Assembly (NCBI RefSeq): GCF_003790525.1
Contig: NZ_CP033635.1
Strand: one strand, 5' to 3'
Source of the DNA: Escherichia coli
Lineage (GTDB): Bacteria > Pseudomonadota > Gammaproteobacteria > Enterobacterales > Enterobacteriaceae
Length of the DNA: 64,000 nucleotides
Shown here: one piece after another, positions 49,012-64,000 of the stretch
Layout of the letters: every line of letters begins with the position of its first letter
Numbering within the stretch: position 1 is the first letter of the stretch
Program-made: the position numbers and the translations under genes
Notes under the pieces: model-generated
Seen by the model: the letters and a program-made list of their open reading frames with translations, nothing else
Told to the model about the DNA's origin: nothing
Databases searched by the model: none

Positions 49012-49097
49012 CATTATTCTGCAGAACATGGAATTTTGACATTAACGCCGGATGGAGATTAATCCATCCGGCAAACGCATTTATTATCTTGAATAAC

Positions 49098-50501
49098 TCA
49101 GGCCTTTGCTTCGTTGAAGCGCAGTAAACGGAAACCTGTAGAAGCATAGATCAACGCAAATATCATCGAGCAGAAACAGAATACACAGTACGGCAAGTAA
49201 CTAAACGTCGGCACGCCTAGTGTTGTCGCCATATACAATCCGGCAGCTGACCACGGAATAATTGGCGCGCTCATGGTGCCAAAATCTTCCAGCGTTCGGG
49301 CTAAGACTAACGGTGATAAATTAAGATCTTCGAATTTCTTCATCATCAATTCAGATATAACAATCTTATTCAAACCATCAGAACCGGTAAGTAAGTTAAT
49401 GATGATCGCTAAAACACCGCTTGCCAGAATAGCGCCAAAGGCACTTTTTATTTTGTTTGCCGCACTTTGTAATGTGACATCCATCATTCCTGTTCCCGTC
49501 AGGATGCCAGCAAACATCATGGCGCAGATAATAAATGACAGGAATCCGCCCTGATTATTCAGGCCGCCTTGTTCAAGCAGTTCTTTCACAGAAGGTAACA
49601 GCGTCGTTGAATCAGTGATCATCGTCAGACGGAAACCACTCATTGTGGCCTTAATACCTTCGGCCAGCGGGAAACCTTGATACAGCCATCCAACCAATAC
49701 GGCCACGAACGCACTGCTTAATAATGCCGGTACTGTAGGCAAACGCAAAAAGGTAAAGCACAGAACAATAAGCATAGGCAGTAGCGGTAACAGACCAAAC
49801 TTATATAACTCTTTGAGCTGTACCAGCATCTGCATGCTTTCTGGTGAAATAGAGCCCGTAGAAGTATGAATCATTCCCAGCCAGGTAAAAAACAGCAGGC
49901 TAATAATCGTTGATGGGATGGTCGTCCAGAGTAGATATTTAATCAGATCATAAAGTTTAGTTTTGGTTACCGCTGAAGTCAGGTTAGTGGTATCACTTAA
50001 CGGTGAAAGTTTGTCGCCAAAATAAGCCCCGGTAACAATGGCTGCCGCCAGAATTGGAAGATCGGCATGTAAGCCGGAACCGATGCCCATTAATGCAACA
50101 CCAATAGAAGCGACAGATCCCCATGATGCCCCGGAAACATAGGACAATACTGCGTTCAGAAAAAACGCTATAGCATAAAGCCATGCGGGCGCAACCAGTA
50201 ACATACCGTAATAAACCAGCATCGGCAGTGTACCTGCATAGCTCCATGTCGCGACCATAAAGCCAACGAAAATAACGATAAGTACCGGTGCCATCACCGC
50301 CGAAATCTTATCGATAATAAACCCCTGGATTTCATCCCAGGTATATTTCAGCTTAGCCATTGCAATAATGCAGGAAAACGCCGCTGAAATTAATAAACAG
50401 ACGCTGGCAGGCCAGCCCATAACACCGATGCCAACAACCAACACGATCATCATAAAAATGATCGGTGTAAGCGCGACATAAAAACTGGGTTTTTCTCTCA
50501 T
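49098..50501 (-). CDS. NhaC-family Na+/H+ antiporter-type transporter
   Basis: 467-aa polytopic membrane protein; 14 nt downstream of FAD oxidoreductase (50516..51886). Confidence 0.65.
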   Translation of the reverse strand: MREKPSFYVALTPIIFMMIVLVVGIGVMGWPASVCLLISAAFSCIIAMAKLKYTWDEIQGFIIDKISAVMAPVLIVIFVGFMVATWSYAGTLPMLVYYGMLLVAPAWLYAIAFFLNAVLSYVSGASWGSVASIGVALMGIGSGLHADLPILAAAIVTGAYFGDKLSPLSDTTNLTSAVTKTKLYDLIKYLLWTTIPSTIISLLFFTWLGMIHTSTGSISPESMQMLVQLKELYKFGLLPLLPMLIVLCFTFLRLPTVPALLSSAFVAVLVGWLYQGFPLAEGIKATMSGFRLTMITDSTTLLPSVKELLEQGGLNNQGGFLSFIICAMMFAGILTGTGMMDVTLQSAANKIKSAFGAILASGVLAIIINLLTGSDGLNKIVISELMMKKFEDLNLSPLVLARTLEDFGTMSAPIIPWSAAGLYMATTLGVPTFSYLPYCVFCFCSMIFALIYASTGFRLLRFNEAKA

Positions 50502-50515
50502 AACTTTATTCCCTG

Positions 50516-51886
50516 TTAAAAGACTTTTACGCCATTTTGCTGTAAGCGTTCCTGTACCGTCTGAATATCTACCTGTGAAACGGTAGTGTTATTTTTAATG
50601 GCAATAGCAGCGGCAGTCCCTGCACCTTCTCCAGTGACAATACAACACCCCATATTACGGATTGTCGCATAGGCGAAATTATCTGCATCGATTGCCCGTC
50701 CGCAAACCAACAGGTTTTCAACTTGCTGCGGAATCATTACGCCATAAGGGATTTGAAAATAGTTCGCTTCAAGAGGTAATTTAAGATGACCATTTCCATC
50801 TATAAACTCAGGGAATACCCCTATTGAATCCGCATGACGTCCCTCATTACAAATATCATTTTCCGTAAGCTGGACTCGCCCAATAATATGTCTTGATTCT
50901 CTTGTTCCCACCGTCATACCGAAATTTTTTAATTGTGCCTGTTCAAATCCTGGCTGGAATTGACGCAACGCTTCAATCGCCTGCATGGCTTGCTTGCGGC
51001 CTTCTATTTCTGCACGCGTCAGGTCAAAAACATCCGTACAATCGACGGCAGGGATGCTGACAACGTTCAAGTAATTCGCATCACCATACTCGGTGACCGT
51101 ACTCCAGGAACCGCCTAACGTCACATCTTTTGGAATAATTCCTGCCGACTTTCCTTTCGCAAAGACTTTACCCAGATAAGGGCTAAACATATCGCGACAA
51201 GATTCATGAACATCATAAGACCAGTTTTTATTTTCTTCATCCGCCCCCCAGTCTCCATATTTAGGTTCCGTGCTCTTAATATTTTGCATGAACGCGTTTT
51301 TATTTATATTTGCGCAACTAAAAACGGTTGTCATACACATTAGCTCTTCGCGTTCACGCTTAATAAATGGTGCTCCGGCAAACCATGCAATATCGGCATC
51401 GCCAGTACAGTCAATAATGACATTCGCCAAAATAGCCTGACGACCAGATTTACTCTCTGTTATTACGCCGAGTAAATTATTGCCCTGCTTAATAACATCA
51501 ACGGCGGTAATGTGTAGTACGCGGCGCACACCTGCCTGTTCAAGCATTGCATCCGCAACCAGTTTGAAACGCTCGGCGTTAATAGCCTGACTATTCGATT
51601 GCGGCTCAGGGCTGGACGCCCCCATTGATTTTGCCGTTTCTTCTATTTCGCGTGCCAGTCCACCTGACTCTACCGTATTTTCATGACGCCACCAGGCAAT
51701 TGACTCGACGCCAGCCGTTGTCATCATTCCGCCAAAACAACCGAAACGTTCAATCAGCATAGTAGCTGCGCCTTCACGAGCGGCACTCATTGCTGCGGCA
51801 ATACCCGATGGACCACCACCAACAACTAACACTTCCGTGGTTGCCAGTACAGGTATATTACGAGCGGGTTCCAGATAAAATTCCAT
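50516..51886 (-). CDS. FAD-dependent oxidoreductase (paralog 1)
   Basis: 456 aa; N-terminal dinucleotide-binding VVGGGPSGIAAAMSAAREG; shares many blocks with 61055..62449 (e.g. DCTGDADIA, FDCTDVFDLTKAEI / VDCTDVFDLTRAEI, GIFPEFIDG, MRNM.CC.VTGE). Confidence 0.7.
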   Translation of the reverse strand: MEFYLEPARNIPVLATTEVLVVGGGPSGIAAAMSAAREGAATMLIERFGCFGGMMTTAGVESIAWWRHENTVESGGLAREIEETAKSMGASSPEPQSNSQAINAERFKLVADAMLEQAGVRRVLHITAVDVIKQGNNLLGVITESKSGRQAILANVIIDCTGDADIAWFAGAPFIKREREELMCMTTVFSCANINKNAFMQNIKSTEPKYGDWGADEENKNWSYDVHESCRDMFSPYLGKVFAKGKSAGIIPKDVTLGGSWSTVTEYGDANYLNVVSIPAVDCTDVFDLTRAEIEGRKQAMQAIEALRQFQPGFEQAQLKNFGMTVGTRESRHIIGRVQLTENDICNEGRHADSIGVFPEFIDGNGHLKLPLEANYFQIPYGVMIPQQVENLLVCGRAIDADNFAYATIRNMGCCIVTGEGAGTAAAIAIKNNTTVSQVDIQTVQERLQQNGVKVF

Positions 51887-62449: not shown

Positions 62450-63705
62450 TCCGCATTGTTTTCAGTGATTTCATTGACTTGATTTTTACTTTTACGATTC
62501 ACACGCTGGAGGACCAGTGCGGCGATAAGGCCGATGAATGCGCAAACCAACATGAACAGGAAAACATCCTGATAACCGGCAATACCCGGTTTGCGGTCGA
62601 CCATATTGCCCACCATCGTGTAGCAGTAGATTTCCGGGAAATAGGTCAGTAAAGAGATCAGACCCGCAGCAGTCCCTGTGACTTTTGCCGGGATCCGAAT
62701 CTCATCAATAATTGAGAAGAACACGGCATTCGCAGAGTAAATAAACACGCCCAACGCAACCATATTCGCCAGCGCAATAGTGACGTAGCGCGACTCACCG
62801 GGCAGGAAGAAATAAACGGTAGTAAAGACAATCATGCCGATAAAGGCGTAAATCATAAAACGCGTGCGTGACGCACAGCGGTCGGCCAGTTGTCCGCCAA
62901 TTAATCCCCCCATCGCAAATAACACATAGGCGCGAAGAATACTGGCAACTGCCACTTCCGATTCGCCCATATGCAGGATCTGCGTGAGATACGGCGTGAC
63001 CATGCCAAAGCCGATATAAATTGACCACATACAAAAGGTCACAACACCTGCCAGCCAAACCGTCGGCATTTTCAGCACGAATGCCATATCTGCCAGACGG
63101 AAATTCGCTTTATCTTCGCTGTGCGTTTCATCCTGACAAACAAACCAGGCTAAAACACCGGCCAGAATAGTCACTACGGAATAAAAAATAATTGTCGCCC
63201 GTAAACCATCAACACCTTCGCCAAATTTGGCAAATACCGGCACGGAAAGAAATCCCAGTACAATGGAGGTTAATCCCTTACCCAGAAACCAGTAACCGTA
63301 TAAGCGACCTTGTTCTTCGCTGGTTCCCAGGGTACGAATAATTCGCACACACACGGCCCAAAACGTAAATACGGTTGTAACAGCCCAAAGTGCATGTAAC
63401 AAACAGATCATAGTATACGAGGGGAAGGTCGCATAATAAAAACCACTTATCCCGGTGGAAATTAATGAAAAGGTCATTAATTTACGTGCAGAAAATCTAT
63501 CGGCAGCCCAACCGCCAGGTAGATATAATAAAAAGTTCACCAGACCATAGGCTGTCATTAGAAAACCAAGTTCAGCATTAGTCGCTCCTGTAGCCTGCTG
63601 CATCGCGTCGTAATAGGTTTCCCGTAAATAAGGCAATTTATATATTGCACTTCCGGCAATACCACATAACGCCAGCGTGATCCAACGTTTCCAGTTACTG
63701 GTCAT
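62437..63705 (-). CDS. MFS transporter
   Basis: 422-aa polytopic membrane protein, translationally coupled to FAD oxidoreductase 2. Confidence 0.7.
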   Translation of the reverse strand: MTSNWKRWITLALCGIAGSAIYKLPYLRETYYDAMQQATGATNAELGFLMTAYGLVNFLLYLPGGWAADRFSARKLMTFSLISTGISGFYYATFPSYTMICLLHALWAVTTVFTFWAVCVRIIRTLGTSEEQGRLYGYWFLGKGLTSIVLGFLSVPVFAKFGEGVDGLRATIIFYSVVTILAGVLAWFVCQDETHSEDKANFRLADMAFVLKMPTVWLAGVVTFCMWSIYIGFGMVTPYLTQILHMGESEVAVASILRAYVLFAMGGLIGGQLADRCASRTRFMIYAFIGMIVFTTVYFFLPGESRYVTIALANMVALGVFIYSANAVFFSIIDEIRIPAKVTGTAAGLISLLTYFPEIYCYTMVGNMVDRKPGIAGYQDVFLFMLVCAFIGLIAALVLQRVNRKSKNQVNEITENNADCAS

Positions 63706-63772
63706 ATTTATTCCCGAATGAAGTATTTAAAATGACACCAACGGCCTGCTTTGCACAGGCCGTATTATTTTT

Positions 63773-64000
63773 TTAAAGTCCCAAATGATGTGCAGTTAAA
63801 ATTGCGCAAAGAACGTCCTGCGCTGTTACTACGAATGGCATATTATGGATAGTTTCCCCTTCAGCAGTCGCTGCTTCAGCCACTGCCCGTAATTTATCTT
63901 TATTAATTTCCTTCACGCCTAACATATGAAGATTTGTCGGCAGACCAACGCTATGGCAGAAATTGAGTACGGTTTCAATTTCCTCCTGTGGTGCGTTTTC
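63773..64000 (-). CDS. Glycerol dehydrogenase-like (iron-containing ADH family) protein, 3' part only; 5' end beyond window
   Basis: Hand translation of minus strand gives ...ENAPQEEIETVLNFCHSVGLPTNLHMLGVKEINKDKLRAVAEAATAEGETIHNMPFVVTAQDVLCAILTAHHLGL*, resembling the C-terminus of GldA (AEGETIHNMP block). Confidence 0.6.
   Translation of the reverse strand, partial: ENAPQEEIETVLNFCHSVGLPTNLHMLGVKEINKDKLRAVAEAATAEGETIHNMPFVVTAQDVLCAILTAHHLGL

Follow-up and report, generated by a model that had tools for sequence, protein, structure and literature searches.

The catabolic island beside hypT in an Escherichia coli genome is part of the GimA (ibeA) locus: related clusters and a candidate dihydroxyacetone-responsive regulon

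Positions 49012 to 64000 of the stretch of Escherichia coli DNA analysed here (64,000 nucleotides of contig NZ_CP033635.1, assembly GCF_003790525.1; hereafter the window) are the hypT-proximal 15.0 kb of the 20.3-kb GimA (ibeA) locus of strains of the extraintestinal pathogenic E. coli (ExPEC) type. A first-pass annotation, made from the sequence without database searches, had described a catabolic island here that it could not match to a characterised E. coli pathway; as this island is the GimA locus, published in 2001, the object is already known and nothing about it is new as an object. What is new are GimA-like clusters in several other lineages and paired palindromes that also stand at the K-12 dhaK promoter; these suggest one dihydroxyacetone-sensing regulon. 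I consider it probable that GimA is a single dihydroxyacetone-responsive catabolic regulon which feeds both triose and glyoxylate into glycolysis.

The gene ibeA is among the most cited ExPEC virulence genes. The island itself is a textbook item and adds nothing alone; the remaining interest lies in the tension between a literature that treats IbeA as an 'invasin' and an IbeA that is enzymatic and widely conserved.

Identity and extent of the locus

A megablast search of 5426 complete E. coli genomes returned the segment 49012-64000 at 100% identity in E. coli SMS-3-5 and 18 other genomes. Altogether the GimA segment was present in 246 genomes, always chromosomal and in single copy, with the copies in the remaining 227 being 95-99% identical to that of the window. 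The window allele is the one of phylogroup-F-like strains such as SMS-3-5. Gene annotation follows the RefSeq feature table of SMS-3-5, where the segment is identical, and a listing of the open reading frames (ORFs) of the window, and enzymes and carriers were assigned by comparing NCBIfam hidden Markov model (HMM) scores with their curated cut-offs. All genes that the first-pass annotation had named were recovered where it had placed them, and it had overlooked a 644-aa DhaR-type regulator at 52173-54107 on the minus strand.

GimA as published lies between yjiD and yjiE and comprises 20.3 kb with 46.2% G+C and four operons (Huang 2001; Homeier 2010), namely ptnIPKC, cglDTEC, gcxKRCI, and ibeRAT, with 14-15 genes. 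The locus examined here is inserted between yjiE (hypT) and yjiD (iraD), measures 20,311 bp with 46.1% G+C, and corresponds to GimA in gene content including ibeA; the RefSeq product name of the identical gene is IbeA (WP_000397938.1, 'putative intracellular survival FAD-dependent oxidoreductase IbeA'). In SMS-3-5, the order is hypT, nhaC, ibeA, dhaR, gcl, hyi, a 2-hydroxy-3-oxopropionate reductase gene, a glycerate kinase gene, and a BCCT transporter gene, followed by genes for an FAD-dependent oxidoreductase, an MFS transporter, and glycerol dehydrogenase, and then by dhaK, dhaL, ptsP (a DhaM-Enzyme I fusion), and iraD. The island does not end at 64000 after about 15 kb, as had been assumed: the rest of gldA, dhaK, dhaL, and the dhaM-Enzyme I fusion add another 5.3 kb beyond the window, and the glycerol-dehydrogenase-like gene, correctly recognised in the first pass, is represented in the window by its last 76 codons only. 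The island part of the window has a G+C content of 45.2%, compared to 49.4% for the rest.

In the window hypT ends at position 49011, and in SMS-3-5 the cluster stops 47 bp before iraD. The K-12 genes hypT and iraD are convergent and overlap by 8 bp, with the island sitting exactly between them, so it is a pure insertion relative to K-12 and no K-12 genes have been replaced, contrary to what had been proposed. The SMS-3-5 RefSeq annotation contains no integrase, transposase, or tRNA gene in or beside the cluster (flanking repeats were not specifically searched), and the cluster fails the classical criteria of a mobile genomic or pathogenicity island, a conclusion also reached by Homeier (2010), who preferred the term 'locus'. 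Reviews list PAI-iraD (GimA) for strains RS218, IHE3034, APEC O1, UTI89, and LF82, and the literature on the RS218 islands labels its content as 'dihydroxyacetone, glycerol, and glyoxylate metabolism'. The features of the locus within the window are as follows:

48100-49011, plus strand: hypT (yjiE), left flank and not part of the island (RefSeq annotation of SMS-3-5)
49098-50501, minus strand: ibeT, NhaC-family transporter, 467 aa (TIGR00931, 380 bits, cut-off 370)
50516-51886, minus strand: ibeA, predicted cytoplasmic PF12831 FAD-dependent oxidoreductase, 456 aa (PF12831 over full length, E = 1e-93)
52122-52170, no strand: paired palindromes TGCATCAAAATGAAACA and TCTTTCAATTTGAAAAG, 32 bp apart, upstream of ibeA; candidate DhaR-type operator (motif and spacing as in K-12 dhaK-dhaR)
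52173-54107, minus strand: ibeR, DhaR-family transcription activator, 644 aa (NF008485, 986 bits, cut-off 551)
54343-54392, no strand: paired palindromes TTATTCAAACTGAAACA and TGTTTCACTGTGAAACA (perfect match), 33 bp apart, in the divergent ibeR-gcl promoter region
54501-56240, plus strand: gcl (gcxC), glyoxylate carboligase, 579 aa (NF008431, 1075 bits, cut-off 791)
56253-57035, plus strand: hyi (gcxI), hydroxypyruvate isomerase, 260 aa (TIGR03234, 388 bits, cut-off 353)
57053-57940, plus strand: gcxR, 2-hydroxy-3-oxopropionate (tartronate semialdehyde) reductase, 295 aa (TIGR01505, 382 bits, cut-off 341)
58015-59157, plus strand: gcxK, glycerate kinase, 380 aa (TIGR00045, 548 bits)
59213-60754, minus strand: cglC, BCCT-family transporter, 513 aa (best model CaiT-type NF002887, 392 bits, below its cut-off of 541)
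60778-61002, minus strand: unannotated ORF, 74 aa, with two hydrophobic helices (homologue in Citrobacter sp. NCU1)
61055-62419, minus strand: cglE, PF12831 FAD-dependent oxidoreductase, 454 aa, paralogue of IbeA (51% identity)
62437-63705, minus strand: cglT, MFS transporter, 422 aa (weak matches to organophosphate/anion MFS subfamilies)
63773-64000, minus strand: cglD, gldA-type glycerol dehydrogenase, running off the window (full SMS-3-5 gene: NF006941, 558 bits, cut-off 336)

To the left of the insertion site, a large inverse autotransporter gene, iatD, occupies positions 40012-44754 on the plus strand, upstream of kptA-yjiH-yjiG-iadA-hypT. The corresponding place in K-12 is taken by yjiJ-yjiK and more genes, so that the region left of kptA is also unlike K-12.

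Paired palindromes, the dha genes, and related clusters

IbeR is 33% identical to K-12 DhaR, and the GAFTGA motif for contact with sigma-54 is missing in both. The literature calls IbeR an 'RpoS-like' regulator; the protein encoded here is of the DhaR-family enhancer-binding type, without GAFTGA. Sites of the sigma-54 -24/-12 type (TGGCAC-N5-TTGCW) were found 37 times against 43 expected, which is chance level, and none lay in intergenic DNA of the island.

Comparing the intergenic regions of the island brought up the palindrome TGTTTCA-N3-TGAAACA. With three mismatches at most, 10 copies are present in the 33-kb SMS-3-5 locus where 2.2 would be expected, and none of 100 shuffles reached 10. 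Six of the 10 form three tandem pairs with a distance of 32-33 bp, all in promoter regions of the island: upstream of ibeA, between ibeR and gcl (with one perfect copy), and, off the window, between gldA and dhaK (L001 25028-25076). The K-12 dhaK-dhaR intergenic region shows the same arrangement, with a perfect copy and a second one 31 bp away (L094 5956-6003). Among about 95 loci that were fetched (1.6 Mb), such pairs appeared only in K-12 dha and in GimA-like clusters. Examples in the latter are, in Vibrio and Photobacterium, a pair before the BCCT-cglE operon and one in the gldA-dhaK interval, and, in Citrobacter NCU1, one that precedes the flavoenzyme gene. The palindrome is a candidate operator for DhaR and IbeR. 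No Rfam match at E <= 1 was obtained for riboswitches or other RNA elements in the island, nor any at gathering score in six related loci, and generic promoter and terminator scans were uninformative.

GldA, DhaK, DhaL, and DhaM-Enzyme I of SMS-3-5 all pass their curated HMM cut-offs. The island DhaM has 793 aa and unites EIIA, HPr, and Enzyme I in one chain (L001 26883-29264), compared to 472 aa for K-12 DhaM; being fused to a complete Enzyme I, it endows the island kinase with its own phosphoenolpyruvate (PEP) phosphorelay. In K-12, DhaL-ADP reportedly activates DhaR while DhaK antagonises it, with dihydroxyacetone as the signal and transcription from a sigma-70 promoter.

GimA-like clusters, made up of flavoenzyme, transporter, gldA, and dhaKLM, and usually gcl, were found in Vibrio, Photobacterium, Pseudovibrio, Serratia, and Citrobacter and are reported here as new (ORFs in relatives of high G+C were called in a manner aware of G+C at third codon positions, GC3). 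Counting E. coli, six lineages share this combination with the gene order shuffled, and four of them (E. coli, Vibrio, Citrobacter, and Pseudovibrio) have gcl-hyi-glxR next to it. The gene orders in the other lineages are:

Vibrio jasicida: BCCT transporter, CglE (78% identical to that of E. coli), a divergent second PF12831 protein, a cyclophilin-like protein, NhaC, a PatB-type C-S lyase, and IbeA (68%), followed by gldA, dhaKLM-Enzyme I, dhaR, divergent gcl-hyi-glxR, and then glpD-glpR-glpK-glpF
Photobacterium: BCCT transporter, CglE, second flavoprotein, cyclophilin-like protein, IbeA, NhaC, gldA, dhaKLM, dhaR
Serratia sp. S1B: MFS transporter, gldA, dhaKLM, IbeA, NhaC
Citrobacter sp. NCU1: gcl-hyi-glxR-glxK, dhaMLK, gldA, 71-aa protein, flavoenzyme, MFS transporter
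Pseudovibrio stylochi (an alphaproteobacterium): gcl-hyi-glxR, a glycerate 2-kinase of a different family, gldA, dhaKLM, flavoenzyme, MFS transporter

The divergent dhaR-gcl arrangement is kept between E. coli and Vibrio, and IbeA orthologues that are 68-76% identical reside in the metabolic clusters of Vibrio, Photobacterium, and Serratia. By pairwise identity, the flavoenzymes fall into three orthogroups with one carrier type each, IbeA with NhaC (68-86% within the group), CglE with BCCT (67-78%), and a third with an MFS carrier of 461-471 aa (73%), while identity between groups is 47-61%.

Several further observations concern the neighbours of these genes. The Vibrio cluster is directly followed by glpF, glpK, glpR, and glpD (L093 448-5600), which makes for a glycerol-centred neighbourhood. 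The second PF12831 protein after BCCT-cglE in Vibrio, Photobacterium, and Polycladidibacter is very divergent (~25% identity; L003 5056-6784, L090 7898-9602, and L041 11384-12661), and in the two Vibrionaceae it is followed by the cyclophilin-like protein of 123 aa; E. coli GimA has neither. The PatB/MalY-type C-S lyase gene of Vibrio jasicida between nhaC and ibeA (L003 8789-9961; 308 bits, cut-off 340) has no counterpart in Photobacterium or the enterobacteria, and this neighbour hints at an S-substituted cysteine, or the thiol formed from it, as a compound that the Vibrio NhaC/IbeA branch may deal with. An AGXT/PhnW-like class V aminotransferase gene adjoins BCCT-cglE in Endozoicomonas and also a subfamily member in a metagenome-assembled genome (MAG) of Desulfobacteraceae, the latter with no BCCT gene nearby, while BCCT-cglE in Polycladidibacter adjoins genes for a GhrB-like 2-hydroxyacid dehydrogenase and a short-chain dehydrogenase/reductase (SDR). 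The aminotransferase and the 2-hydroxyacid dehydrogenase are further enzymes of glyoxylate or hydroxypyruvate and speak for the metabolic reading given below. In roseobacters and in many MAGs the subfamily genes had housekeeping genes around them, an uninformative context.

The flavoenzymes, their carriers, and the glyoxylate module

The first-pass annotation had described two paralogous FAD (flavin adenine dinucleotide) oxidoreductases, each beside a transporter, and this description is accurate: IbeA and CglE are true paralogues with 51% identity over 452 aa. IbeA matches PF12831 with E = 1.3e-93 over residues 18-448 of 456, and the glycines G23, G25, and G28 of the GxGxxG FAD site near its N-terminus are invariant in 68 aligned sequences. 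An AlphaFold2 model computed from this 68-sequence alignment has a mean predicted local distance difference test (pLDDT) score of 95 and depicts a two-domain soluble flavoprotein with an N-terminal Rossmann strand-helix. The nearest folds are those of the archaeal geranylgeranyl reductases 3oz2 and 3atq, FixC (7koe), and urocanate reductase (6t85). A comparison of the oxidoreductases with characterised enzymes, which the first pass had proposed, places them in PF12831 and yields no close characterised relative: a PDB sequence search with IbeA returned the dinucleotide-binding motif only and no close solved relative, and NCBIfam holds no specific model for IbeA or CglE. No relevant literature on PF12831 was found. 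In contrast to the strong PF12831 match (E = 1e-93), the DAO/sarcosine-oxidase family PF01266 reaches only E = 0.004, and tested against PF01266 and the sarcosine and opine oxidase subunit families, neither protein qualifies as a DAO-type amine, sarcosine, or opine oxidase. The amadoriase or opine oxidase reading was dropped as it involves the wrong flavoenzyme family.

Paris et al. (2024), as cited in other papers, reported that IbeA is a homodimeric FAD-binding protein. Judged from the N-terminus and the model, without a dedicated signal-peptide predictor, IbeA has no signal peptide, no beta-barrel or passenger domain, and no membrane anchor; beginning with a Rossmann strand-helix and showing no export signal, it looks more like an enzyme of the cytoplasm than like an invasin on the cell surface.

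The family is very large, with 4867 proteins at E <= 1e-20 among the candidates scored. The IbeA subfamily (at least 44% identity) includes proteins of E. albertii (94%) and Citrobacter freundii (89%), as well as Pluralibacter, Serratia, Vibrio, Photobacterium, and Endozoicomonas, and extends to roseobacters, Halieaceae, SAR86, Chloroflexi, Desulfobacteraceae, Oscillospiraceae, and a Lokiarchaeote. Homologues of ~50% identity thus occur in free-living marine bacteria, in strict anaerobes including sulfate reducers, and in an archaeon; the strict-anaerobe and archaeal members are 47-53% identical (Lokiarchaeota MAG, L019; Desulfobacteraceae, L004-L006 and L016; Oscillospiraceae, L023). The presence of the subfamily in strict anaerobes argues against a reaction that obligatorily depends on O2.

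The NhaC, MFS, and BCCT carriers are all present, in agreement with the three transporter types noted in the first pass, with the MFS carrier CglT matching NCBIfam models at superfamily level only. Relatives of ibeT with 60-73% identity adjoin ibeA orthologues in Serratia, Vibrio, and Photobacterium, and a cglT orthologue of 82% identity adjoins gldA in Serratia. Orthologues of cglC (BCCT) with 55-58% identity always have a CglE orthologue alongside, and CglE is 67-78% identical to these BCCT-linked orthologues in Vibrio, Photobacterium, Polycladidibacter, and Endozoicomonas. The small membrane protein between cglE and the BCCT gene that had been noted in the first pass is real as well. The RefSeq table of SMS-3-5 lacks this 74-aa ORF and skips a locus-tag number there, and the Citrobacter sp. 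NCU1 cluster encodes a homologue of 71 aa (42% identity, E = 9e-14; L091 9389-9604). An ORF of 71 aa beside gldA in Serratia was considered as a counterpart and rejected, as the two are not homologous.

The island further holds a second, complete gcl-hyi-glxR-glycerate kinase module, as proposed in the first-pass annotation. Gcl, Hyi, the reductase, and the glycerate kinase (548 bits) all score above the curated NCBIfam cut-offs. The RHVEG motif specific to Gcl, in which Val replaces the usual catalytic Glu, is kept in the island enzyme. SMS-3-5 additionally has the canonical allS-allA-allR-gcl-hyi-glxR...glxK region, which makes the island module a second copy; identities between the two copies are 69% for Gcl, 56% for Hyi, 63% for the reductase, and 48% for the glycerate kinase versus GlxK. 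Family scores and motif support a second, bona fide glyoxylate-to-phosphoglycerate module. The Hyi-like isomerase also passes the cut-off of the 2-oxo-tetronate isomerase OtnI (377 vs 325 bits). No other Otn-pathway genes lie near the island hyi, and the threonate/erythronate (Otn) pathway was dropped as only this isomerase fits. In the canonical allantoin cluster of SMS-3-5, outside the window, an IS1 element splits a uracil/xanthine transporter gene between allB and glxK (L088 23754-25832).

Possible function and comparison with known systems

A mechanism consistent with these data would run as follows. IbeR, the DhaR paralogue, would bind the paired palindromes before ibeA-ibeT, between ibeR and gcl, and between gldA(-MFS-cglE-BCCT) and dhaKLM, and would be switched on when the island DhaK and DhaL meet dihydroxyacetone, as in the K-12 DhaR/DhaK/DhaL circuit. 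Small polar substrates would be taken up via the NhaC-type, MFS, and BCCT carriers and oxidised by cytoplasmic IbeA and CglE, most simply at a C-H beside O, N, or S, with hydrolysis to follow. As one flavoenzyme without an accompanying hydrolase or lyase would feed both branches, C-H oxidation of a conjugate followed by spontaneous hydrolysis is the simplest chemistry. The C3 products (glycerol, glyceraldehyde, or dihydroxyacetone) would leave through GldA and the PEP-dependent DhaKLM-Enzyme I to dihydroxyacetone phosphate, while glyoxylate as the C2 product would pass through Gcl, Hyi and the reductase, and glycerate kinase to phosphoglycerate. On this view, the published effects of ibeA on invasion and on resistance to H2O2 would arise indirectly, from this metabolism.

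A more specific version is possible and put forward tentatively: GimA may represent, in enterobacteria, a catabolic module that has spread horizontally and is controlled by a dihydroxyacetone-sensing DhaR paralogue; in this module three transporter-linked flavoenzyme orthogroups would cleave glycerol-containing zwitterionic or anionic conjugates to triose and glyoxylate, with IbeA being cytoplasmic and its virulence phenotypes metabolic. Solely as an illustration, the deacylated form of the betaine lipid DGCC (diacylglyceryl-carboxyhydroxymethylcholine) would be such a substrate. Glyceryl-carboxyhydroxymethylcholine is an acetal of glycerol, glyoxylate, and choline and would yield glycerol or glyceraldehyde, glyoxylate, and a quaternary amine; it is found free in the marine holobionts Symbiodiniaceae and giant clams and is unlikely in E. 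coli habitats. A literature search found nothing relevant on the substrate of the cgl, gcx, or ibe genes or on clusters of BCCT, flavoenzyme, and gcl. A carnitine-type CoA pathway was dropped because there are no CoA enzymes.

A number of points weigh against the single regulon and its proposed chemistry. The palindrome is read as a DhaR/IbeR operator from its distribution, including the K-12 dhaK promoter, rather than from a footprint, and with IbeR being only 33% identical to K-12 DhaR, the sensing partners could differ. Any substrate is linked to IbeA and CglE by gene context and not by activity, and the flavoenzyme reaction could be reductive rather than oxidative, given the homologues in anaerobes and the reductase-like fold neighbours (C=C reductases, FixC). 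Only 6 of 42 IbeA-subfamily loci carry gldA/dhaKLM, most genes of the subfamily lying in unrelated contexts; the BCCT-cglE pair occurs without the rest of the cluster in Endozoicomonas and Polycladidibacter, and there is no gcl within 10 kb of the Serratia cluster. That the modules can occur apart in this way is what would be expected if GimA were a mosaic of a spare dha, a spare gcl, and two transporter/flavoenzyme pairs, with no common substrate and brought together by history only. I regard such a mosaic as rather unlikely, since the combination recurs in six lineages with differing gene orders, the divergent dhaR-gcl arrangement is common to E. coli and Vibrio, and the paired motif stands at three E. 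coli promoter regions and before the BCCT-cglE operon in Vibrio and Photobacterium. The first-pass annotation had favoured a C2-yielding amine, such as an N-substituted glycine, a sarcosine- or betaine-type quaternary amine, or an opine-like N-carboxymethyl amino acid, that is oxidised directly to glyoxylate with gcl as the sole carbon exit. This would account for the BCCT carrier beside cglE in every lineage and the adjacent gcl module, and glyoxylate-type aminotransferases or reductases do adjoin CglE orthologues elsewhere, with class III/V aminotransferases being frequent neighbours of the subfamily. It is nonetheless unlikely: it leaves out the dha half, and hence the most constant partners gldA and dhaKLM, the DhaR-type regulator, and the operators, and it is at odds with IbeA and CglE standing outside the DAO/sarcosine-oxidase family and with their homologues in strict anaerobes. 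Furthermore, the usual amine-oxidase type of oxidation by a flavin dehydrogenase is not possible at a quaternary nitrogen centre.

The phenotypes of the mutants have given rise to other explanations. Many papers report lowered invasion or virulence of ibeA, ibeT, ibeR, and cglD mutants, GimA is enriched in isolates of NMEC (the E. coli of neonatal meningitis) and APEC (avian pathogenic E. coli), and binding of recombinant IbeA to the host proteins vimentin, PSF, and Caspr1 has been published, which a purely cytoplasmic role leaves unexplained and which thus also counts against the metabolic interpretation. GimA would then be a virulence island with IbeA as a surface-exposed invasin that binds these receptors and drives invasion of brain endothelium, the metabolic genes being mere modulators. 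This appears improbable for a protein without signal peptide or membrane segment, with a globular model and a Rossmann start, that is described as a FAD-binding homodimer, has orthologues in the same metabolic clusters of Vibrio, Photobacterium, and Serratia, and has relatives in free-living marine bacteria, sulfate reducers, and a Lokiarchaeote. Very improbable is a role in stress defence rather than nutrient use, by which the locus would detoxify short-chain carbonyls of the host burst (glycolaldehyde, glyoxal, dihydroxyacetone, and methylglyoxal), which would explain the H2O2 and macrophage-survival phenotypes. The published H2O2 sensitivity of ibeA and ibeR mutants speaks for it, as do the GldA-type enzymes scoring 442 bits on the glycolaldehyde reductase model and the position next to the hypochlorite regulator gene hypT. 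Detoxification would also suit DhaK, which traps dihydroxyacetone and glyceraldehyde, and Gcl, by which glyoxylate is removed. Three dedicated uptake carriers, however, fit poorly with endogenous or diffusible aldehydes, the same clusters are present in free-living marine bacteria and beside glpFKD in Vibrio, and the adjacency to hypT reflects the insertion site only.

The metabolic reading, with one dihydroxyacetone-responsive regulon, therefore remains the one I prefer, and together the operator and synteny evidence make the substrate question directly testable. The locus has long been described, yet the searchable literature reports no substrate for IbeA or CglE. The questions of GimA's substrate and of how a flavoenzyme of the cytoplasm comes to score as a factor for invasion and survival bear on the E. 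coli of meningitis, sepsis, and avian colibacillosis and on Crohn's-associated strains. If a substrate were found, a widely used virulence marker would be reassigned to nutrient or niche metabolism, and a subfamily of flavoenzymes common in marine bacteria would gain a function.

Compared with published GimA, the locus has the same insertion site, size, G+C content, gene content, and gene order and shows no essential difference; the window covers 15.0 of the 20.3 kb and includes the conserved 74-aa ORF that is not in the current RefSeq table. With the K-12 dhaR-dhaKLM system, it has in common the DhaK, DhaL, and DhaM domains, a regulator architecture without GAFTGA, and the paired palindromes, at identities of 33% for the regulator, 59% for DhaK, 55% for DhaL, and 38% for DhaM; unlike K-12 dha, the island has gldA in the cluster, a DhaM fused to Enzyme I, and a putative regulon that reaches gcl, the transporters, and the flavoenzymes. 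The K-12 allantoin/glyoxylate genes gcl-hyi-glxR...glxK encode the same four enzyme families and share the Val-for-Glu motif of Gcl, whereas the four island genes are contiguous, 48-69% identical to their counterparts, free of allantoin genes and of AllR/AllS, and divergent from a DhaR-type regulator gene with DhaR-type palindromes in the promoter. Finally, IbeA agrees with the PF12831 flavoproteins, which have two dinucleotide-binding domains and 3oz2, 3atq, 7koe, and 6t85 as structural neighbours, in its FAD-binding fold and in a Pfam match over its full length.

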